64,000 nucleotides of DNA from a virus (IMGVR_UViG_3300010224_000001:96001-160000), one strand, 5' to 3'. Counted from the stretch's first letter, positions 24,157 through 35,628 are shown. The notes: a model not told the origin generated them from the letters alone. Numbers and translations are program-made.

Positions 24157-24417
24157 ATGAAACAAATTGTTTGTTTAGGCGACACCAGCGATCACGGTGG
24201 TGTAATGGTGACTGCGACTGGTAACTTTACAGCGAACGGCATAGAAGGTTGTGTCCATGGTGATATGCATCAATGTCCCATTCAAGGACACGGTACAACG
24301 CCAGTCACCTCTACCTCCAGCAGTCAAGCCGAAGGTAGAGGTCTTTTGCGTACAGGTGATCAAGCGGGATGCGGTGCAACAATTATAACGGGTGCTTCTG
24401 GCATCGAATCTGACTAA
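24157..24417 (+). CDS. PAAR-repeat spike tip protein
   Basis: LGDTSDHGG, HGDMHQCPIQGHG, RTGDQAGCGATI. Confidence 0.9.
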   Translation: MKQIVCLGDTSDHGGVMVTATGNFTANGIEGCVHGDMHQCPIQGHGTTPVTSTSSSQAEGRGLLRTGDQAGCGATIITGASGIESD

Positions 24418-24452: not shown

Positions 24453-25688
24453 TTAGATGTCAGTACCGATTAATAAGAAATGTGCATGCGCGTTACGTGA
24501 AGGTAAAGCAATCACTTTACTTTCTGACACACCTTCTAAGTCTTGCGCAGCAGCCGTAGTATACACACGACGTTTACGAGCTGTCTCATTCATGTGAATC
24601 GAATACTGGCCATCTTCGACCCGATACCAGTATGCTTCATGACGACCAGCTCCCACGACTGTAGGATAGATCGGTTTCGTAAAGCTCGTGTAGACGCCAG
24701 CATACGGACTCGTGCGTAAGTACTGTTCTTCCGTAAAGATGTCAGGATTGTCAAGCACAACAAAGAACGAATTCTCTAACGTCAAGTAACGCTTTAAGAC
24801 ATCATCGCTATAAATGTCTTCCACACTGATCTGTGAAGTATTCGCCTTGGTTGACTGTAATTGTAACGATGACAGATCTAAGATCTCATACGACTCGTAG
24901 TATCGTTCAATTAAAGGCAAGTTACTAAAGTCAAGACTAAACGCTGACGGACTGACGCGGAAGAATGTGGTTTTATCTAACACATGCAAGTAACCACCTA
25001 ACACCAACATGACTGCTTTGTTAGAGAGATCAACGCCAGTGTCAATATAACAGTTAGCGCTCAACGATTGCAGGTTCGATTGTTTATAGATCATATCGGT
25101 AGTGATCGGAATAAACGATAACTTACCTAATGATTCGAAATTCAGAATGCCGAGTTCATTCCGATTAGCCCGTCTTGCCGTTTTCATACCGTTGACAACG
25201 AAGGCGCCATCAGCACTGTAGTCCGTCTTATGGTAGAAACCATTCACAGAGACTAAACAGCTTTCGTAGAAGTGCTGGTAAACCACACCATCTTTAGTTA
25301 AGCGTAACCAATCCTTGTCACCGTTAGGAATATCCGCTGTAAATGAATAAGCGGGATTGATTGGTTCAATCGAATAACCTGCATGGAAACCATCAGCATA
25401 ACGTGCAAAGCGTGTATTGATTACCGGAATGGTATCATACGTCGGCAAAGTCGCACTGCCGTTTTCTACTAAGAACTCATTGAACGTTAACGGACTCGCG
25501 CCAAAGGTAGGGCGAATCATTTCAATGTTGAAACTCACATTGTGATCAAGGAAGTTGTTCGACAACGTAACGATGACTTTACGAAACTGGGAGAATATCT
25601 GGTTCAAGGGAAGATTCCCAATATCTAGATCAGTCCATCGACCATCTCCCGATAATGGTTTTACGATAGCAGAAACAAATTGGTACAT
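24453..25688 (-). CDS. probable virion structural protein
   Basis: 411 aa ORF between spike and tail-fibre genes. Confidence 0.6.
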   Translation of the reverse strand: MYQFVSAIVKPLSGDGRWTDLDIGNLPLNQIFSQFRKVIVTLSNNFLDHNVSFNIEMIRPTFGASPLTFNEFLVENGSATLPTYDTIPVINTRFARYADGFHAGYSIEPINPAYSFTADIPNGDKDWLRLTKDGVVYQHFYESCLVSVNGFYHKTDYSADGAFVVNGMKTARRANRNELGILNFESLGKLSFIPITTDMIYKQSNLQSLSANCYIDTGVDLSNKAVMLVLGGYLHVLDKTTFFRVSPSAFSLDFSNLPLIERYYESYEILDLSSLQLQSTKANTSQISVEDIYSDDVLKRYLTLENSFFVVLDNPDIFTEEQYLRTSPYAGVYTSFTKPIYPTVVGAGRHEAYWYRVEDGQYSIHMNETARKRRVYTTAAAQDLEGVSESKVIALPSRNAHAHFLLIGTDI

Positions 25689-27042: not shown

Positions 27043-28722
27043 ATGTCGAGACTCGTAAAACGGCTTCGGCGTGAACCTACAACGCCGGGCATAAAGGCAG
27101 GTCAACAGATCTTTAACTCACCGGGTGCATACCAGCCGAAGTTTGGTAAGGTTAAGGTCTACGTATCAGGACGCGGTGAGAGTGGTAACTCACCTACTCC
27201 TGGTACAATTGCTAACTACAATCCGCCAACCCCAGGCAATTATGTTAGTACGAACCCTTCATCGGGTGGCACCTACGCAGGAACCAATCCGAGCACGGGT
27301 GGCAATTACGCAAATACGAATCCAAGTACTGGCGGTAATATCGTTGGGTATAACTCACCCACTCCCGGTAACTACGCTGGTACTAATCCGCCTACTGCTG
27401 GTAATGTTGCTGGTTACAATCCGGCGTCACCTGGTTACACAGTAACGACACCTGGTAACTATGTTCCAGGTAATCCTTACACGAACCCGTATTACTCACC
27501 AGCGGTGCCAGGGACTGCGTATTACAATCCTTCGATTACTACACCTGGTTATTACGTAGCGCCTTCGTATCAAGAGCTGAACATTGCTATGACACAGACG
27601 TGTCCGGTAGGTTGGGTGACTGGGTATGACTATGACGACAACGGTCATCCGTTTAAAGTCTGTGATGTGTATACAGCAGGATATACCAACACCCCAACCA
27701 CAACACCAGGCAATTACGCAGGTACTAACCCGACAACCCCTGCTGTGTATTATCCTGGTAATTATAACCCTGGTACTTACACTCCGGGTAATTACGTTCC
27801 GGGCACATCCAATCCTGGCACGTATAGTCCAGGTAACGCCAATACCGCTTATAGTAACCAAGGAACGTATACGCCAGGTAACTATGTAGCGGCAACGAAT
27901 AATCCTGGAACATACACCCCTGGTAATACCAATACGGCGTACACGGCTCCTGGTAACACCGTTCCAGGCTATCAAGATGTAATGGATGGTACGGCAGCAG
28001 GTGCGTGTCCAGCTGGATGGACAACTTGGACAACGTGGCAAGCTGATGGTGCAGAAGGTCCGTTCTTAACGTGCACGATTACGTATAGCCCTTACACGAA
28101 TCCGCCGACGTATGTGCCTGCATCGACTAACCCTGGTACGTATACACCGGGGAATACGAATACAGCATATACCAACAACGGCAGTTATACGCCTGGTAAC
28201 TATGTTGCGTCGTACACCAACCCGGCAACATACACACCTGGGAATACGAATACAGGTTATACTAACCCAGGTACATACACACCTGGAAATATTACGGGCG
28301 CTTACACCAATCCTTCTACGGTGTATTATCAGTCAGGTACACCTGGTTATGCCAACTATAACCCGAGTACGCCAGGTAATATGTATTACAACCCGACAAC
28401 TCCTGGTACGGCTATTTATAGCCCGACTGTTCCTGGCACCGCCAATTACAATCCAGTGGTTCCGGGGAATGCATTCTATAACCCGATTGTTCCGGGGACT
28501 GCTAATTATAATCCAGCAACTCCTGGTACAGCGAATTATAATCCTACGATTCCTGGTAACGTAGGTAGAACATACTCCACGCTTGGAGTCACCTTCCCTG
28601 GCGGACCTGTGGGGCAACCTGCGCCGCAAGTGGGTGACACCTTAACCACGATTGCTTACTCAAATACTGCAGTGCCTGTTGAAGTGCGCTACGGTGGAGT
28701 GGTTATCGTCAAAGAACAATAA
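27043..28722 (+). CDS. Pro/Gly/Asn/Thr/Tyr-rich repeat fibre protein 1 (putative receptor-binding protein)
   Basis: 10-, 11- and 5-residue PG/NP repeats with two CPxGW...C inserts; paralog of 32722..34284. Confidence 0.7.
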   Translation: MSRLVKRLRREPTTPGIKAGQQIFNSPGAYQPKFGKVKVYVSGRGESGNSPTPGTIANYNPPTPGNYVSTNPSSGGTYAGTNPSTGGNYANTNPSTGGNIVGYNSPTPGNYAGTNPPTAGNVAGYNPASPGYTVTTPGNYVPGNPYTNPYYSPAVPGTAYYNPSITTPGYYVAPSYQELNIAMTQTCPVGWVTGYDYDDNGHPFKVCDVYTAGYTNTPTTTPGNYAGTNPTTPAVYYPGNYNPGTYTPGNYVPGTSNPGTYSPGNANTAYSNQGTYTPGNYVAATNNPGTYTPGNTNTAYTAPGNTVPGYQDVMDGTAAGACPAGWTTWTTWQADGAEGPFLTCTITYSPYTNPPTYVPASTNPGTYTPGNTNTAYTNNGSYTPGNYVASYTNPATYTPGNTNTGYTNPGTYTPGNITGAYTNPSTVYYQSGTPGYANYNPSTPGNMYYNPTTPGTAIYSPTVPGTANYNPVVPGNAFYNPIVPGTANYNPATPGTANYNPTIPGNVGRTYSTLGVTFPGGPVGQPAPQVGDTLTTIAYSNTAVPVEVRYGGVVIVKEQ

Positions 28723-28762
28723 GAGTCAATCTTATTTTTAGTCTTTTACCTTCTCTTAAGGA

Positions 28763-29398
28763 ATGGCAGTCATGATTCAACATTATCCTCTTCCCGATTA
28801 CTCGCCGGTTACTGAATTCTTTTGCATCTTAGAAGGTGCATTTTCAGCAGAACAGGTCGGTCAAATCATCACTCACGCTGAAACGCAAGACTTCTATGCG
28901 AAGAGCCGTGGTGGTGGCGGTAGCAAGGAAGGGACGGTGGGCGATGGTCGTGTTGATCCAAACATTCGTAAATCAGAAGTGACGTTCTTGGAAATTAACC
29001 AAGGTACGGAAGGTCTGTTTGAACACGTGGGTCAAGTTGCAGGTCGTGTTAACTATGATAAGTTCCGTATGGATCTTGACTTTATCGAGGCCCTGCAGTT
29101 TACTCGATACAAGGAAGATGGTGGACATTATCACTGGCACATCGATTCGCATCAAAACGATCAACGCACGCTGCACCGTAAGCTCTCGCTGGTGATCATG
29201 TTAACTGATCCTGACGAATACGAAGGTGGTGATCTGTTGTTGAATAACAACGGCAATCAAGATCATCCGACTGTGATTCGTGCTAAGAAAGGTGACGCAA
29301 TCTTCTTCTATTCGAACATCCCGCATACCGTTACTCCAGTGACGAAGGGGGAACGGCTGTCTCTGGTATCGTGGTTCCTGGGTCCGAAAGTTCGTTAA
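28763..29398 (+). CDS. 2OG-Fe(II) oxygenase, prolyl-4-hydroxylase/PKHD type
   Basis: YHWHID, RKLSLV, YEGGDL, PHTVTPVTKGERLSLVSW (HxD...H...R). Confidence 0.9.
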   Translation: MAVMIQHYPLPDYSPVTEFFCILEGAFSAEQVGQIITHAETQDFYAKSRGGGGSKEGTVGDGRVDPNIRKSEVTFLEINQGTEGLFEHVGQVAGRVNYDKFRMDLDFIEALQFTRYKEDGGHYHWHIDSHQNDQRTLHRKLSLVIMLTDPDEYEGGDLLLNNNGNQDHPTVIRAKKGDAIFFYSNIPHTVTPVTKGERLSLVSWFLGPKVR

Positions 29399-29407
29399 GG
29401 AGACGCT

Positions 29408-30307
29408 ATGAAAATTAGCAATAGTGCTCTGAAACGCGTTCTGACTCCGGAACGTTTAGCTGAACTTAATTTGCGGCCAGCTGAACTTTCCAACGAAGAT
29501 ATTCTGGCTCTCTTAACGCCTGAAAAGCAAGCAGAGTTAAATCTGCGCGCCCCGCGAGAAACAGATGAGAATTACGATCATATTCCTCTGATCGAATTCT
29601 TCTGTGAGTCACATCTCTTTGATGTGATTCCTAAACCCGTGCAAGCGTTTAAGAAGATTGCCAAGTGGTTTACCCATTCTCCCGCGCATCTGAAGTTAGA
29701 AGACAATCCACCCCGTGATCATTTCGGTGCCGGAGTGATGACCGTGAAAAGCTGCTTACCGCTACTTGACGGTATGTCACTGGGTTACGTGATTTCAACT
29801 GCTGCTGACTTTACAGTTCGTACCGGACCGAAAGGTTCAGATCTGTTTGAGATCATTAACCCACCACTGTTGTCGATGGCAGGTACGCACAATCCTATTC
29901 AATTAGGTGGTGCAAAGAATAGCCCTACCGGACCTCGTCCGTTAATCAAGTTTCATAATCCTTGGGTTGTCAAGACACGTCCAGGTTGGTCCACCCTGTT
30001 TGTTCCTGTGTTAAACCACATGGAGAAACGTTGGACCTGTCTGGCTGCGGCGGTCGATACTGACACGTATCCCAAACAAGTCAACTTCCCAGCAGTCTTC
30101 CATGCAGATAACTTCGATGAAGTCATTCCTGCTGGTACTCCGCTGATGGTAGCTATCCCATATCGTCGTCAATTTGTCGAGCGTGATATCAATGTTCGCA
30201 CGATGACGAAAGAAGAACAGGATGAAATCTCGCGCATCACTCGGGTGCAAGATTCTCGTTCCCATTACTATACTTCCGAACTGCGTGAGTCCGGAAAGAA
30301 GGACTGA
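29408..30307 (+). CDS. DUF6065-like protein A
   Basis: KSCLPLLDGMSLGY...NPWVVKTRPGWS...VDTD...IPAGTPLMVAIPYRR. Confidence 0.6.
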   Translation: MKISNSALKRVLTPERLAELNLRPAELSNEDILALLTPEKQAELNLRAPRETDENYDHIPLIEFFCESHLFDVIPKPVQAFKKIAKWFTHSPAHLKLEDNPPRDHFGAGVMTVKSCLPLLDGMSLGYVISTAADFTVRTGPKGSDLFEIINPPLLSMAGTHNPIQLGGAKNSPTGPRPLIKFHNPWVVKTRPGWSTLFVPVLNHMEKRWTCLAAAVDTDTYPKQVNFPAVFHADNFDEVIPAGTPLMVAIPYRRQFVERDINVRTMTKEEQDEISRITRVQDSRSHYYTSELRESGKKD

Positions 30308-30313
30308 AAACAA

Positions 30314-31099
30314 ATGAGTAACTTCCACCTGATACGGACTTTGAAAGACACAGTTATTAAACTGCTGACACGCTCTACACCTTCGTTGATTAAATTCGCT
30401 TGTAGCCGGGGCGGTTATTATGTAGCCACTCCAGTTACTACTGCGCGCGAACTCGTTCCTAACTTTGTTAAGGAGCAGATTCGTAATGCAAAGGCAGCGA
30501 ATAACGGCACTGGTAAAGCGATAGCTAAGTTTGTGCGTTGTCCAGGCATGCATGACTTATCTCAGCAAGGTTATTTGGTCTACGCCCATACCGACATCCA
30601 CATCATGGCTAGTAAACACACCGTCGTGGTGGATACGCCATTGGTGCCAGCTGCGGAACTGGGCTGTAAGCCAATGGACTTTGAAGTTGTGGATGGGTTA
30701 GCACCTATTCCCGACAACGTCAAGAAGGGTGTGTTCAAAGTTCCGTGTCCGTGGGGGGTTCATACCGACCCTGGTTACTCAGCACATGTTCTCCCTGCCT
30801 TCTATCACTTCCCGTACTTTGATAAAGTGTATGTGTATCCAGGCACGGTAGACTACGATGATTTCCATACGTTGAATTTCATCATCAGTCCGATCGCGCA
30901 GTGTGATTTCGTTATTCCGGCAGGTACACCTTTATTGCAAATCATTCCGTTTAAGCGAGAAGATTTCCATGGCACTTCAGGTCCGGCTTCGGACATTGAA
31001 CGGGACCGTCTTTTGTTTGGCTTCCCGAGCCGTGTTAAGGGTGCTTATCGTCGACTGTTTTTCAAGAAGAAGACATTCACCATTGAGGTTACTAAATGA
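30314..31099 (+). CDS. DUF6065-like protein B (paralog of A)
   Basis: RCPGMHDLSQQGY...PWGVHTDPGYS...VDYD...IPAGTPLLQIIPFKR. Confidence 0.6.
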   Translation: MSNFHLIRTLKDTVIKLLTRSTPSLIKFACSRGGYYVATPVTTARELVPNFVKEQIRNAKAANNGTGKAIAKFVRCPGMHDLSQQGYLVYAHTDIHIMASKHTVVVDTPLVPAAELGCKPMDFEVVDGLAPIPDNVKKGVFKVPCPWGVHTDPGYSAHVLPAFYHFPYFDKVYVYPGTVDYDDFHTLNFIISPIAQCDFVIPAGTPLLQIIPFKREDFHGTSGPASDIERDRLLFGFPSRVKGAYRRLFFKKKTFTIEVTK

Positions 31100-31551
31100 C
31101 CACCATTATTTACTTCTACACTGACCGTACGTTAAAGACGGCGACGTGGGCGGGTCCAATGCCTGAAGTGTGGGAAAAGATTTCTGGCTTAACGCCGGAT
31201 AACTACAACGACGCCCGTGAGCTGAGCTGGGCCGGTGCTGAGTACGCGGGTAAAGGTTTCATGACGCGTCAAGATGCTCTCGACCAAGGCGTTATCTCAA
31301 ACGTTCTGGACGACCTGACTCAGACCGCCTACGACTTTGAATGGTCGCGCCTGGATCCGATCCGTCAACAACTGATCAGCGACATCCAATGGCGTATTGA
31401 TCGTTACAATAGTTACGTCCGTCAAAGCTTGACTCCTCCGGAACCCGTCGAACCTTTGGATGCGTATGTGCAAGCAATTCGTGACTTGAGTACCCTTTAC
31501 ACGAATCCGTTTGACATCGTATGGCCTACAGTGCCTCCGCTTCCGGCATAA
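31096..31551 (+). CDS. tail fibre assembly chaperone (Tfa-like)
   Basis: R..L...W...YVQAIRDL...FDIVWPTVP C-terminal motif. Confidence 0.75.
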   Translation: MTTIIYFYTDRTLKTATWAGPMPEVWEKISGLTPDNYNDARELSWAGAEYAGKGFMTRQDALDQGVISNVLDDLTQTAYDFEWSRLDPIRQQLISDIQWRIDRYNSYVRQSLTPPEPVEPLDAYVQAIRDLSTLYTNPFDIVWPTVPPLPA

Positions 31552-31569
31552 TAGCAAAACATACCTTGC

Positions 31570-31602
31570 GCCAGAGCGATTGTGGTCGCTCTGGCTTTTA
31601 TG
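31570..31602 (+). terminator. intrinsic terminator overlapping TATG late-type motif
   Basis: GCCAGAGCGA-TTGTGG-TCGCTCTGGC-TTTTATG. Confidence 0.65.
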
Positions 31603-31650
31603 CGATCTGTTTATAAATATTTTTTTACTTTAGCGGTAGGAGAGTTTTAG

Positions 31651-32712
31651 ATGGCACCTGTCCCAATTAAATACCCTCTTGATCCGACTGGCATTTCTCC
31701 GGCTAACTTAGTGCAGGGAGAAGCAAAGACACTTAACAATGCCAAGATCAGGGTGTTTGGAACGCTATACGGTCCGTTCTTTACCGAGTCATTAGTAGTG
31801 AAAGATGCTGCTAACGGTCGCGTATTGACTCGGGATGTGGATTACTACGCAACAGAGATGTATCAATTGCCGACAGAAATGTACGGTAAAGAAATCTGTG
31901 CAATTATCATTATCACCAATCAAACGGTCAGTCCCAATGTGACTGTTGATTATCAAGTGTTAGGCGGTGAGTTCAGTTATTCGTACGATGCAATCGTGCA
32001 GTTAATCACCAAACTGAATCTGGATAACCGTCCTGTCGCTTGGGGTAACTTGATTGACAAACCCGACGCATTTGAACCGGCTCCGCACTTACATGACGCG
32101 GGTGACGTTTACGGTATGGAATATATCGTCACGGCGTTAGAACGGGTAGCGCAAGCAATTCAGATTGGTTCACTGCCGGGCGAATCGAAGATCTACGGGT
32201 ACATGGATTCGCAAATCCAAGCATTGTACAAAGCACTGAATGACTTTGCAACCTCGACCCAAACCAAAGCTTCTGTTCTCAGAGCGCTTGGTTATACCCC
32301 GGCTGATAAAGCAGGCGATACCTTCACTGGTGCCGTTACCTTGACTAAAGGTCTGAACTTAGCCAGTTACTTAAAAGAATCAATCGTGCAGGTGGAAGCA
32401 CGTGGTTCGGAAACAGTGCTGGACTTAAGCGCTGGTAGTATCTTCTTCATCAAAGTCTACGCAAGTAGCGGTATTCGTTTCGATACCTCCAAGATCACTG
32501 GTATTGGTCCGAACGATTCGATCAGCTTTACGGTGGTGATTGTCAATGCTGTCGCCAATGCTGGTATTTCGTTTGTGAATACCGTGGCTTGGTCAGGTGG
32601 TAACATTCCGCCTCGTACAGTAACTTTGAATGGACGCGATGAATACTACTTCAGTACCTTCAATAGCGGAGCTAGCTATACTGGATCGCTGTCTGATCAA
32701 GACGTGAAGTAA
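31651..32712 (+). CDS. tail fibre anchor/adaptor protein 2
   Basis: YPLDPTGISPANLVQGE N-domain; ALGYTPADKAGDTFTG; C-terminal domain paralogous to that of 25785..27026. Confidence 0.75.
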   Translation: MAPVPIKYPLDPTGISPANLVQGEAKTLNNAKIRVFGTLYGPFFTESLVVKDAANGRVLTRDVDYYATEMYQLPTEMYGKEICAIIIITNQTVSPNVTVDYQVLGGEFSYSYDAIVQLITKLNLDNRPVAWGNLIDKPDAFEPAPHLHDAGDVYGMEYIVTALERVAQAIQIGSLPGESKIYGYMDSQIQALYKALNDFATSTQTKASVLRALGYTPADKAGDTFTGAVTLTKGLNLASYLKESIVQVEARGSETVLDLSAGSIFFIKVYASSGIRFDTSKITGIGPNDSISFTVVIVNAVANAGISFVNTVAWSGGNIPPRTVTLNGRDEYYFSTFNSGASYTGSLSDQDVK

Positions 32713-32721
32713 GGAGTCATT

Positions 32722-34284
32722 ATGCCAACTCTCGCTGGTAGAAAGCGCAGGGAAAGAACCAATGCCTCTTCGGTGAATCCGTCCATGGTGTATAATTCAC
32801 CGGGTGTCTATCAACCAAAATACGGTAAGATAAAGATCTACGTATCAGGTCATGGCTCACCAGGCAATTCACCAACACCGGCAACGATTGCTAACTACAA
32901 TGCACCGACGCCTGGAACTGTCGCTGGTTATAATCCAACGACACCAGGCACAGCAGTCTACAACTCGCCAATCCCTGGCAATGTTGCGTACAACCCACCT
33001 AGTGGTGGTAATTTAGCAGGAACTAATCCACCTACTGAAGTACCGCAAACAGCAACCGCTGTGATTAACTATTCCACTGGTAACCCAACCAGCTATGATA
33101 GTTATACTTACGTAGTGCCTACGCAATGGCCACCGTATACGGTGTATCAGCAACACAACACGAATACAGGTAGTCCCGCAGGTGGTTACGAGTATCAGAT
33201 CTGGACCTTAAGTCAAAGTCCAGTGCCTGGTAATGCGTATTACAATCCAGTTGTGCCTGGAACGAAATATACCAATCCGCCAACTCCTGGCACGATTGCG
33301 TATAATCCACCGACACCTGGTAACGCGTACTATAACCCGGCCACTTACACTCCAGAAAGTTACTCGCCTGGATATGTGGTGCCTGGTAATTACGTGGCTG
33401 GTAATACTAACCCGCCGACGGCTGTACCTGGTAACTATGTGCCTGCGTCGTACACGCCTGGTAATACTGTTCCTGGTAACACGAACCCAGGAACCTATAC
33501 CCCTGGTAATACTGTGGCGGGCACAACTAACCCCGGCACTTACACCCCAGGGAACACGAACGCGCCCGTGTATTCGCCAGGTAATTATAATGGTTACCCA
33601 GGGTACAACGGTCCTGTGTATTTGTCGCAGGATATGTCCACCTTTGCTAATCAAACCTGTCCGATTGGTTGGTCATATTGGGTGCAGTGGGATCCTGAAG
33701 GTGGCAACTATAACCAAGAGATTTGCCGAACATACATCGAGGGCAATACCAATCCGCCGACGTATAGCGCAGGTTATGCGAATCCAGGTACGTACACTCC
33801 AGGTAATACCAACAATGCGTACACCAACCCGGCCACCTATACACCAGGTAACACGAATCCTACTACGATGAATTCGAGTTACTACGTTCCGGCTTACACC
33901 AATCCGACAACGTATACTCCCGGCACTACAAATAGTGGTTACAACAATACCACTTACGTGCCACCGACGTACGTAGCTTCCAAGTACACTCCAGGTAACT
34001 TGACGTATAACCCTGCAACACCGGGTAACGCTATGTATAACCCGTCAACGCCGGGTACTGCATACTACAACCCGACATCACCGGGTAATGCCAACTACAA
34101 TCCGGCTATTCCTGGTAACGCTGGTGCTGACTTTACTGCTATGGGAGTGACCTTCCCAGGCGGTCCAGTTGGCACTCCGGCGCAGGTAATCAGTGATACT
34201 TTGGTAACAGTGCCGTATACCAATACGACTGTGCCTGTTCCGGTTGGACCTGGTGGACAAGTTGTTGTTAAAGAAACATGGTAA
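32722..34284 (+). CDS. Pro/Gly/Asn/Thr/Tyr-rich repeat fibre protein 2
   Basis: same terminal segments (NSPG.YQPK.GK.K.YVSG.G; GVTFPGGPVG) and repeat types as fibre 1. Confidence 0.7.
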   Translation: MPTLAGRKRRERTNASSVNPSMVYNSPGVYQPKYGKIKIYVSGHGSPGNSPTPATIANYNAPTPGTVAGYNPTTPGTAVYNSPIPGNVAYNPPSGGNLAGTNPPTEVPQTATAVINYSTGNPTSYDSYTYVVPTQWPPYTVYQQHNTNTGSPAGGYEYQIWTLSQSPVPGNAYYNPVVPGTKYTNPPTPGTIAYNPPTPGNAYYNPATYTPESYSPGYVVPGNYVAGNTNPPTAVPGNYVPASYTPGNTVPGNTNPGTYTPGNTVAGTTNPGTYTPGNTNAPVYSPGNYNGYPGYNGPVYLSQDMSTFANQTCPIGWSYWVQWDPEGGNYNQEICRTYIEGNTNPPTYSAGYANPGTYTPGNTNNAYTNPATYTPGNTNPTTMNSSYYVPAYTNPTTYTPGTTNSGYNNTTYVPPTYVASKYTPGNLTYNPATPGNAMYNPSTPGTAYYNPTSPGNANYNPAIPGNAGADFTAMGVTFPGGPVGTPAQVISDTLVTVPYTNTTVPVPVGPGGQVVVKETW

Positions 34285-34552: not shown

Positions 34553-34933
34553 ATGGAATCACGATTCTTTGGTATTCGTCAATCCACCTGGCAAGAGATT
34601 CGCTACATGGCACTGCGTAGCATCTTCCTAGGCTTCTTAACGATTGCTGGTTTCGCCCTACTGGACTATCTGGTAGAAAGCGGTGCTGCTGATCGTTTCG
34701 CCCTGGTGCATCGTTTCCCTGAGTTCATCCTGATGATGAGTGCGGCTGCTAAGCTGACCTTTATCAAGATGTCGCTCTACTGGATTCGTTTAGGTACGCA
34801 AGTGCGCAATGTTAAGCAAGATGCAATTGAATCTGCGAACAGAACGCCGCTGAGTGCTGCAATTGTGTATGCTACCAATACTGTTGGCGCGTTAGCACAC
34901 ATTGCCGTATTCCTCTTGCTGATGTATCTGTGA
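34553..34933 (+). CDS. putative holin
   Basis: 126 aa, about 3 hydrophobic segments, overlaps the endolysin start. Confidence 0.55.
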   Translation: MESRFFGIRQSTWQEIRYMALRSIFLGFLTIAGFALLDYLVESGAADRFALVHRFPEFILMMSAAAKLTFIKMSLYWIRLGTQVRNVKQDAIESANRTPLSAAIVYATNTVGALAHIAVFLLLMYL

Positions 34934-35628
34934 TGGGTAAGTTCTTCGACAAGCTCATTATAGGGTTGACGCTCTTCTTCCATTTGACTATGGTGTTCGG
35001 AGCGTCAACCCTACCGGGTGACTCGGCAAGACTCCTGCCAGTTTTAAATAACGAAATCACAACCTTCTGGCCTACTCTTACACCCCGCACTTTTCCTGCT
35101 GGTGTGATCGATCAAGAAAGTAACTGGAAGGTCAGAGCGACTCTGAAAACTTCCCGTGAACTTGGTTGTGGATTAGGTCAATTTACGATTGCGTATGATG
35201 CGAATGGTAAACCACGCTTTGATGCTTTAACAGAAACCAAACAACTTAACTCTAATTTGAAAGGGTGGAGTTGGAGTGACTGTTATAACGAAGAGTATCA
35301 GATGCGTGGTGTACTAACTAAGCTTCGTGTAAATGACCGTAACTGTACCGGACTCATGCGTGATAATCGCGAGATTAAAGCGTGTGCAGCTGCGCAGTAT
35401 AATGGCGGCGCAGGAAGTGTCGCAAAACGCATCAGAACGTGCCGTATGACGCCTGGATGCGATTCCCGTGTATGGTTTGACAACTTGGACAAACAGTGCC
35501 CACAATCGACTGTAAAGGTCGCAGGGTACGGTGAGTCGTTTTGTGAAATCAACAGTAAGTATCCGTCTCGGGTATTTAATCGCATGACTAAGTTTGAGGG
35601 TTTCTTTTCAAAAGAAACAAAAAAATAA
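34930..35628 (+). CDS. lytic transglycosylase (SLT-type) endolysin with N-terminal signal sequence
   Basis: IDQESNW catalytic ES, GLGQF and AQYNGG motifs. Confidence 0.85.
   Translation: MMGKFFDKLIIGLTLFFHLTMVFGASTLPGDSARLLPVLNNEITTFWPTLTPRTFPAGVIDQESNWKVRATLKTSRELGCGLGQFTIAYDANGKPRFDALTETKQLNSNLKGWSWSDCYNEEYQMRGVLTKLRVNDRNCTGLMRDNREIKACAAAQYNGGAGSVAKRIRTCRMTPGCDSRVWFDNLDKQCPQSTVKVAGYGESFCEINSKYPSRVFNRMTKFEGFFSKETKK

Follow-up and report, generated by a model that had tools for sequence, protein, structure and literature searches.

In silico analysis of a stretch of viral DNA, IMGVR_UViG_3300010224_000001:96001-160000 (the window: 64,000 nucleotides, bases 96001-160000 of a virus record of 322,570 bp that carries terminal repeats), located two large repeat proteins, F1 and F2, in which arrays of short tandem units lead from conserved protein ends to non-repetitive inserts and back. 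Both are encoded by intact open reading frames (ORFs) on the + strand, F1 at 27043-28722 (559 amino acids (aa)) and F2 at 32722-34284 (520 aa), and genes for the tail and baseplate of a giant, phiKZ-like phage flank the region; ORFs in other frames which overlie F1 and F2 are taken as by-products of the repeat composition. A third paralog, F3 (361 aa), is encoded on the minus strand of the same genome outside the window (G000:307102-308178; positions 1498-2583 of locus L011) and has a simpler layout, with seven 11-mers, one insert of the type CPVGW...DYDDNG...C and seven 10-mers. The segments of F1 and F2 and the genes surrounding them are collected in Table 1.

Table 1. Segments of F1 and F2 and neighbouring genes, in window positions. 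AF2, AlphaFold2; pLDDT, predicted local distance difference test; HMM, hidden Markov model; 2OG, 2-oxoglutarate; P4H, prolyl 4-hydroxylase.
Feature	Position	Strand	Evidence
F1 N-terminal base half, aa 1-50, basic leader RLRRE	27043..27192	+	AF2 pLDDT 97/90/98 at aa 21-50; conserved block
F1 outer outgoing arm, seven 11-residue units, aa 51-127	27193..27423	+	lag 11 identity 0.58, 0/10000 shuffles
F1 branch-1 outgoing segment, aa 128-175, irregular units including 10-mer AVPGTAYYNP	27424..27567	+	segmentation
F1 knob 1, aa 176-212, CPVGWVTGYDYDDNGHPFKVC between C187 and C207	27568..27678	+	AF2 strands 191-197, 203-209
F1 branch-1 returning segment, aa 213-243, including 11-mer TTPGNYAGTNP	27679..27771	+	segmentation
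F1 branch-2 outgoing arm, aa 244-311, four 15-mers (aa 244-303) and linker	27772..27975	+	lag 15 identity 0.56, 0/10000
F1 knob 2, aa 312-350, CPAGW...C between C322 and C344	27976..28092	+	AF2 strands 326-331, 341-346
F1 branch-2 returning arm, aa 351-431: 10-mer, four 15-mers (aa 365-424), linker	28093..28335	+	lag 15 identity 0.62, 0/10000
F1 outer returning arm, seven 10-residue units, aa 432-501	28336..28545	+	lag 10 identity 0.67, 0/10000
F1 C-terminal base half, aa 502-559 and stop	28546..28722	+	AF2 pLDDT 96-98; conserved LGVTFPGG...GG.V block
F2 N-terminal base half, aa 1-50	32722..32871	+	segmentation, alignment, HMM
F2 first outgoing arm, five 10/11-residue units, aa 51-103	32872..33030	+	segmentation, periodicity
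F2 insert 1, aa 104-166, non-repetitive, Cys-free	33031..33219	+	segmentation
F2 returning 10-mers, four units, aa 167-206	33220..33339	+	lag 10 identity 0.60, 0/10000
F2 second outgoing arm, aa 207-299, 5/15-residue units	33340..33618	+	segmentation, periodicity
F2 knob 2, aa 300-337, CPIGW...C between C313 and C335	33619..33732	+	segmentation
F2 second returning arm, aa 338-431	33733..34014	+	segmentation, periodicity
F2 final three 10-mers, aa 432-461	34015..34104	+	segmentation, unit counts, periodicity
F2 C-terminal base half, aa 462-520 and stop	34105..34284	+	segmentation, alignment, HMM
Fibre protein A, 413 aa	25785..27026	+	PHROG phrog_28376, phrog_2163, phrog_13857; C-terminal phrog_9017 tail fiber
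2OG-Fe(II) oxygenase, prolyl/lysyl-hydroxylase (PKHD/P4H) type	28763..29398	+	PF13640 78.5 bits vs cut-off 27
DUF6065-like protein A	29408..30307	+	phrog_7084 4e-43; Pfam DUF6065 (PF19541) 21.8 bits, below cut-off 26.6
DUF6065-like protein B, ~20% identical to A	30314..31099	+	phrog_7084 3.4e-23; alignment A3
Tail-fibre assembly chaperone-like protein	31096..31551	+	phrog_4912 tail fiber assembly 4e-7; Pfam Phage_tail_APC 22 bits, below cut-off
Fibre protein B, 353 aa, paralog of fibre protein A, same C-terminal module	31651..32712	+	phrog_2163 5e-71

A first-pass annotation, made from the sequence alone, had described F1 as starting with seven 11-residue units and ending with seven 10-residue units, with a lone 10-mer leading out to a first insert and a lone 11-mer leading back. 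Segmentation reproduced both arrays and found both of the solitary units; a regular expression returns six rather than seven of the returning 10-mers because one unit ends in SP instead of NP. The arms which flank the second insert are likewise present, but the five-residue period proposed for them is better replaced by one of 15, as the best lag of the 5/15 arrays is 15 and the unit comprises three 5-residue sub-units. The statement that F2 uses the same grammar with different arm lengths agrees with its segmentation. When the periodicity of ten arrays was assessed by autocorrelation at the stated lag, each against 10000 composition-preserving shuffles, the F1 arrays showed identities of 0.56-0.67 as compared to shuffle means of 0.12-0.16, and in eight of the ten F1 and F2 arrays no shuffle reached the observed value. 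The remaining two were lag-5 tests, in which 10 (F1, aa 244-303) and 31 of 10000 shuffles did so, the weaker outcome being due to the true unit there having 15 residues. Repeat units match one another at 65-77% of positions at the DNA level and have thus diverged, so that recent slippage is not their origin. Threonine, proline, glycine, asparagine and tyrosine together account for 65-67% of the residues of the proteins, with glycine itself at 13% in F1, 11% in F2 and 13% in F3. A collagen-like fibre was rejected for F1 and F2 owing to the absence of long Gly-X-Y triplet runs, the longest (G..)n run being 2 in F1 and 3 in F2. In F1, F2, F3 and two proteins of another phage locus (L001) the unit types are nested, with 10/11-mers next to the base and 5/15-mers next to the knob on both sides; whether unit classes occur in mirror or in parallel order could be scored in only 3 informative single-knob proteins, none of which contradicts the mirror order, and these are too few to use.

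The central observation concerns the relation between the outgoing and the returning arm across the family. The base halves of 257 collected sequences were located by HMMs (with HMMER --max, since the bias filter otherwise drops F1-F3) and the inserts by a self-similarity track; 222 sequences had both base halves and 200 of these were unique and full-length. For the 116 proteins with a single insert the lengths of the N-side and C-side arms were correlated with r=0.954, and once 26 with either arm below 15 aa had been dropped (mostly repeats missed by the detector) the remaining 90 gave r=0.949 and a Spearman coefficient of 0.913. Arm lengths span ~15 to ~200 residues, and the median asymmetry of the 90, |LN-LC|/(LN+LC), was 0.038 as compared to 0.50 for random placement of the insert, a value reached by 0 of 10000 permutations. 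Among the 70 proteins in which a regular expression counted four or more 10/11-type units, the two sides differed by none in 21, by one in 28, by two in 11 and by more in 10. The unit types were complementary in 63 of the 70 (11-mers out and 10-mers back in 56, the reverse in 7), while 4 had 11-mers on both sides and 3 were tied; other subfamilies pair 16-mers with 14-mers (six and six in P0034) or 8/16-mers with 8/16-mers. Pairs of close relatives provide individual events of this kind. P0051 and P0055 are 100% identical apart from a 16-residue insertion on each side of the tip (+16/+16), P0004 and P0010 differ by +11 and +10, L042 and P0034 by +32 and +28 (two units each), L040 and L042 by 5 and 5 flanking the knob, P0046 and P0054 by 29 and 29 next to the base at both ends, L039 and P0076 by 10 and 11, and L032 and L035 by 10 and 6+4. 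P0096, which is 90% identical to P0076, lacks 69 residues in one central block, so that the middle of its insertion is missing; a hairpin that had lost its distal part would be expected to look like this. The hairpin proposed in the first-pass annotation had been given co-variation of N-arm and C-arm repeats in homologs as its test beforehand, and the outcome, in correlation (r=0.949-0.954) and in paired insertions and deletions, was strongly positive. Given a base built from both termini and arms equal in length and complementary in type, the chain therefore runs to the knob and back over an equal distance, for which direct contact between the arms would be the natural reading. Unit numbers range from 1 to 17 and include both parities, which, together with the single-unit differences, fits equivalent rungs better than an up-down meander.

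The two proteins belong to a family that has so far escaped annotation. No family at E<=0.01 was found for F1 or F2 in Pfam-A or in PHROGs, no cultured phage matched F1 or F3 when a collection of 50,697 phage records was searched by tblastn (with a low-complexity filter on that may hide matches), and megablast of 14 kb gave no match. A word-indexed protein search returned 59 homologs at E<=0.001, all unnamed or 'hypothetical', and a profile search of 1.84 billion cluster representatives returned 285 at E<=0.001, of which 79 were at E<=1e-30 and none was named. The termini are the most conserved parts of the 61-sequence family alignment, with a common N-terminal block (..RRERTN...FNAPG.Y.P.YGK....V.G.G..GN) and a common C-terminal block (LGVTFPGG...AP.V....V...Y...G..I.VP.GGYV.I), between which repeats and inserts vary widely. 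In a PDB profile search with the family profile (A4) nothing was significant; the best match, a bovine ultralong antibody heavy chain (6e9q_A, E=0.075), was judged a coincidence consisting of a short TGGN-AGYNPG stretch and CPAGY, and the former presumably lies outside the third complementarity-determining region of the heavy chain (CDR-H3).

AF2 models built on family alignments support the view that the conserved termini are the two halves of one base domain, as had been proposed from the sequence. In F1 the pLDDT exceeds 90 at aa ~20-60 and ~490-559, and in F3 at aa ~20-50 and 300-359, while the first 11-mer and the last two 10-mers have values of 78-96. In a structure search both terminal segments aligned jointly onto single-domain beta-sandwiches of the TNF/C1q type, the top match of both models being the Pam3 fibre protein gp24 (7ypx_A; Z 5.5, root-mean-square deviation (rmsd) 2.8 over 77 residues for F1; Z 5.6, rmsd 2.9 over 76 residues for F3), followed by TNF-family ligands, C1q heads and ALK (7nx3_A, Z 4.5/4.7). 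Scores of Z 5-6 are weak, a range which the notes of the search tool call a common arrangement, and the predicted TNF/C1q-like sandwich is thus a lead rather than an assignment. Foldseek of the F3 model against the PDB gave nothing at E<=0.001, and an ESM Atlas model of F1 was poor (predicted template modelling score 0.19) and yielded no usable match.

The inserts also appear to be small folded units according to the models, albeit to different degrees. The F3 knob, which is of the same type as knob 1 of F1, is predicted with pLDDT above 90 and three strands, whereas the F1 knobs are lower (~75-80 for knob 1 and ~53-68 for knob 2). This knob type, CPVGW..YDYDDNG.PFKVC, is near-identical in four proteins of two phages (F1, F3 and both L001 proteins) in which the arms differ; the F1 copy lies at 27601-27663 of the window (aa 187-207), and its D-x-D-x-N-G stretch is one that we take to resemble a calcium-binding loop. 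Cysteines occur as C187/C207 and C322/C344 in F1 and as C313/C335 in F2, and the number per protein is mostly even (0 in 99, 2 in 58 and 4 in 24 of the 200), which fits disulfide pairs. Monomer structure prediction, proposed in the first-pass annotation as a check, thus returned a base and folded knobs but left the arms at low confidence. DSSP nonetheless assigned, within these low-confidence regions of both models, a strand of 3-4 residues to every unit, the strands following one another at intervals of 11 residues in the N-side arm and of 10 residues in the C-side arm. From these models the stalk could be a compact ladder of rungs or a ribbon, the latter extended and two-stranded, or six-stranded in the case of a trimer. 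A complex prediction with three copies of P0061 (alignment A5) gave a score of 0.00 (mark 0.42), was run without controls, and speaks neither for nor against oligomerisation.

Where two inserts are present, a fork may be placed by arithmetic, as a tree-like path with three arm segments a1-a3 has a stem of (a1+a3-a2)/2. For F1 this is (125+151-99)/2, or ~88 residues, as compared to outer arrays of 77 and 70, and is consistent with a stem of ~7 rungs that divides into a short branch bearing knob 1 and a long 15-mer branch bearing knob 2. For F2 it is (53+124-133)/2, or ~22 residues (~two rungs), which is consistent with a fork nearly at the level of the base. The stalk-and-knob design of the first-pass annotation accordingly keeps its base, its matched arms and its small folded knobs, while the fork is consistent by arm-length arithmetic only.

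The gene order around the family points to tail fibres. F1, F2 and F3 each lie directly after a fibre gene (3/3), and the three fibre genes share a C-terminal module of ~110 aa; in fibre protein A this 'docking' module covers ~aa 300-411, and the N-terminal part resembles virion and tail proteins. For 68 family ORFs in 58 viral loci, the upstream position was taken by a fibre-like gene in 45 cases and by a further member of the family in 8, coincided with a contig edge in 4 and had nothing detected in 11, and among the upstream matches listed the module sits at the extreme C-terminus of proteins ranging from 124 to 2092 aa. The downstream gene was an oxygenase in 48 cases, a family gene in 8, chaperone-like in 1, a contig edge in 1 and none detected in 10, the last being mostly second copies located elsewhere in a genome with one copy of the cassette. 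Two DUF6065-like paralogs come after the oxygenase in the loci listed, and many of these loci add a chaperone-like gene. One locus (L021:6191-15200) has a single fibre gene followed by four tandem family genes (383, 390, 397 and 411 aa), the oxygenase, DUF6065-like A and B and the chaperone-like gene; the four tandem genes look as though they supply that fibre with alternative tips. The F3 locus (L011; G000:C1:305602-309678) has a fibre-like ORF with the same C-terminal module at L011 2635-4023 and a 320-aa ORF downstream, and no oxygenase cassette is present there.

The oxygenase of the window has PDB relatives in PKHD-type hydroxylases (3dkq, PiuC), 5c5t (a viral prolyl 4-hydroxylase) and 4iw3, and its HxD...H triad and 2OG-binding arginine are kept, H126, D128 and R198 in 51/51 homologs and H188 in 47/51. 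X-Pro-Gly is the consensus of collagen P4H, and the arms of the family are rich in X-Pro-Gly and Asn-Pro, so that with the oxygenase adjacent to them hydroxylation of the arms becomes an attractive hypothesis. A search of titles and abstract beginnings on prolyl 4-hydroxylase or 2OG-Fe oxygenase together with phage tail fibres returned nothing on hydroxylated fibre proteins. The DUF6065-like paralogs A and B have invariant C116, D121, S195, N226 and Y288 and no invariant histidine (alignment A3). Of 29 cassette homologs, 15 match Pfam DUF6065 (best E 1.8e-13) and 3 weakly match Pfam dUTPase (best E 6e-4). No PDB relative was found by sequence or profile and no paper was found, and the Atlas returned DUF6065 clusters only. 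Haloarchaeal viruses (49 records; Halorubrum, Haloarcula, Halophage, Hardygib1) and cyanophages (6 records) likewise encode DUF6065-like proteins. In HSTV-2 (L073) the relative adjoins thymidylate synthase and DNA polymerase, and in the cyanophage S-RIM4 (L074) ribonucleotide reductase, rather than fibre genes; judged from sequence and neighbours, the two proteins may have a nucleotide-related ancestry.

With regard to the wider setting, the gene at 23243-24145 matches a baseplate assembly PHROG (2.9e-88), and for that at 24453-25688 (minus strand; 257 records matched) the best cultured relative is Burkholderia phage FLC9 at 41% identity, other relatives being found in Xanthomonas, Ralstonia and Pseudomonas jumbo phages. 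FLC9 gave no match to the repeat family, the DUF6065 profile or the oxygenase, an empty answer which, from one cultured relative, says little. Directly after the baseplate-hub-like gene, an 86-aa ORF (24157-24417) is Gly/His/Cys-rich and PAAR-like by eye. F2 is followed, at 34553-35628, by two ORFs whose position is kept in several related loci, one of 126 aa that looks like a small membrane protein and one of 232 aa that by eye may resemble a lytic transglycosylase.

Taken together, we consider it probable that F1, F2 and F3 are the distal tip proteins of three separate tail fibres, hairpin-armed and knob-bearing, and possibly matured by enzymes. The first ~50 and last ~55 residues would form the small beta-sandwich base, with everything between them constituting one giant insertion. 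This insertion would leave the base as a repeat arm, mostly of 11-mers of the sGGNYAGTNP type, reach one or more small non-repetitive knobs and come back through a complementary arm, mostly of 10-mers of the tPGNAYYNP type, that spans the same distance unit for unit. The base would dock onto the C-terminal module (~110 aa) of the fibre protein whose gene immediately precedes its own, and the variable knobs, many closed by a pair of cysteines, would bind the host receptor, so that the most likely role, by analogy, is that of a receptor-binding tip functionally like the gp38 adhesins. The oxygenase, and perhaps the DUF6065 pair and the chaperone-like protein, might then mature or assemble the Pro-Gly- and Asn-Pro-rich arms, which is the weaker part of the proposal. 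Several observations weigh against this explanation. The block-mean pLDDT of the arms is 33-60 in both the F1 and the F3 model, and half of the family lacks cysteine. P0053 has two units out and three back, L031 has gained ~66 aa on the N side and ~30 aa on the C side as compared to L025, and 21 of the 70 counted proteins differ by at least two units. The correlation and the permutation count overstate independence because the sequences are related, the paired insertions and deletions being the independent events; these in turn come from a single alignment, and since gaps within arrays can be placed ambiguously there, their positions are suggestive only. Moreover, co-variation shows equal span of both arms and not contact, and location in the virion and receptor binding are inferred from gene context. 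Enzymatic modification of the arms is an attractive but speculative hypothesis, and the nucleotide-metabolism neighbours and weak dUTPase matches argue that the DUF6065 pair may not act on protein at all.

Four other readings, and a stronger form of the preferred one, have to be weighed against this evidence. A homotrimer, its stalk formed by six strands from three intertwined hairpins after the fashion of the T4 gp37 needle and its arm matching inter- as well as intra-chain, is a variant of the preferred explanation, contradicts the statement of the first-pass annotation that the design differs from trimeric fibres, and is a possibility that we take seriously while holding it to be the less probable state. 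It is favoured by the best structural matches of the base, which are trimer-forming folds (Pam3 gp24, TNF ligands, C1q heads), by T4 gp37 D10/D11, which has the same topology and is a trimer (PMC6957217), and by the arms, whose low confidence in a monomer model is to be expected if partners are missing; however, Z 5-6 is the range of common arrangements, the His ladders of gp37 are absent, and tip adhesins of the gp38 type are described as monomeric (PMC12032242). Rather unlikely, in our estimate, is a compact lattice, with the arms as two stacked layers or side-by-side mini-solenoids, every 10/11-mer supplying a short strand and a turn, equal unit numbers serving the layer match and a stalk of a few nm. 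The short strand per unit at 11- and 10-residue spacing would suit it, as would the two-unit super-period (22 or 20) in 19 of 48 period pairs combining an 11/22 N arm with a 10/20 C arm, and Pam3 gp24 and S16 gp38 form lattices from out-and-back glycine-rich segments (PMC9608196). The strands, though, fall in low-confidence regions, glycine is at 11-13% as compared to 39% in the Pam3 domain (PMC9608196), and single-unit paired indels and both parities speak against an up-down meander.

Flexible linkers, Pro/Asn/Tyr-rich and largely disordered, perhaps hydroxylated or glycosylated like extensins or mucins and without arm pairing, would account for the low arm pLDDT, for a composition to which T, P, G, N and Y contribute two residues in every three, and for the adjoining hydroxylase-type gene, yet a disordered linker would have no use for arms that agree in length, complement each other in unit type and change by paired indels, and this reading is very improbable. 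Hardly more credible is an assembly factor for the upstream fibre that, like T4 gp38, is absent from the virion: the position directly after a fibre gene and the chaperone-like gene in the same cassette would agree with it, whereas the extreme variability of knobs and arms, the several paralogs per genome and the tandem of four fit host recognition better, and a separate chaperone-like gene is already present. The stronger form of the tip explanation is a branched, rung-paired appendage with interchangeable knobs that folds or functions only after maturation by the oxygenase at X-Pro-Gly and Asn-Pro and by a co-opted DUF6065 pair of dUTPase fold; we regard this stronger form as unlikely; were it true, these proteins would be the first tail-fibre adhesin to be matured by enzymes.

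The bacteria that a phage can infect are determined by the tips of its tail fibres, and the present family is widespread in uncultured phages (285 cluster representatives, 58 viral loci) without having a name, a Pfam or PHROG model or a structure. The paired growth and shrinkage of the arms, unit by unit, amounts to a natural experiment that shows an out-and-back topology without a structure, and the repeat grammar suggests a length-tunable, modular scaffold for the presentation of binding knobs. With a prolyl-hydroxylase-type oxygenase and two DUF6065 proteins linked to it in a conserved manner, the family also poses the question of whether some phage adhesins are matured after translation, and literature searches turned up no paper on this link.

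The out-and-back design has a precedent in T4 gp37, which shares the topology and whose needle structure is PDB 2XGF. In gp37 D10/D11 two chain segments, 811-881 and 1010-1026, make up the base, and residues 882-931 leave it as the outgoing half of the stem and 960-1009 re-enter it as the returning half, with the receptor-binding tip in between, the whole being a trimer (PMC6957217). The present proteins are alike in having a base of two segments (here both termini), an out-and-back stem and a tip. They differ in that the iron-coordinating His ladders are absent (1, 2 and 0 histidines in F1, F2 and F3), the arms consist of Pro/Gly/Asn/Tyr units of 10, 11 or 15 residues in tandem, whose number varies widely, some members have several knobs and an apparent fork, and the protein is the product of a separate gene rather than the fibre's own C-terminus. 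No gp37 or gp12 entry was among the structure and profile matches listed, an absence that is not an exclusion. The gp38 tip adhesins of Straboviridae S16, T2 and PP01 combine a conserved repeat scaffold with variable receptor-binding segments (PMC9608196, PMC12032242). The family resembles them as a separate gene directly downstream of the distal fibre gene with proposed docking on the fibre end; unlike the compact sandwich of glycine-rich polyglycine II (PGII) motifs in gp38, its scaffold consists of long matched arrays, and no sequence similarity to gp38 was found in Pfam, PHROG and PDB profile searches. Gp24 of cyanophage Pam3 has a TNF-like sandwich whose strands are prolonged as loops that go out and back and bear the receptor-binding tips, and its glycine-rich domain (39% Gly) arranges six short loops in a lattice (PMC9608196). 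[quoted passage not shown] The bovine ultralong CDR-H3, to which the first-pass annotation likened the design, has a similar out-and-back stalk and small disulfide-bonded knob, an analogy of design only, as scaffold and origin are unrelated. The known kind to which F1, F2 and F3 would belong is therefore that of fibre-tip receptor-binding proteins built as out-and-back insertions, and what is new is a hitherto undescribed family, its length-tunable and apparently branched scaffold, and the enzyme cassette that accompanies it.

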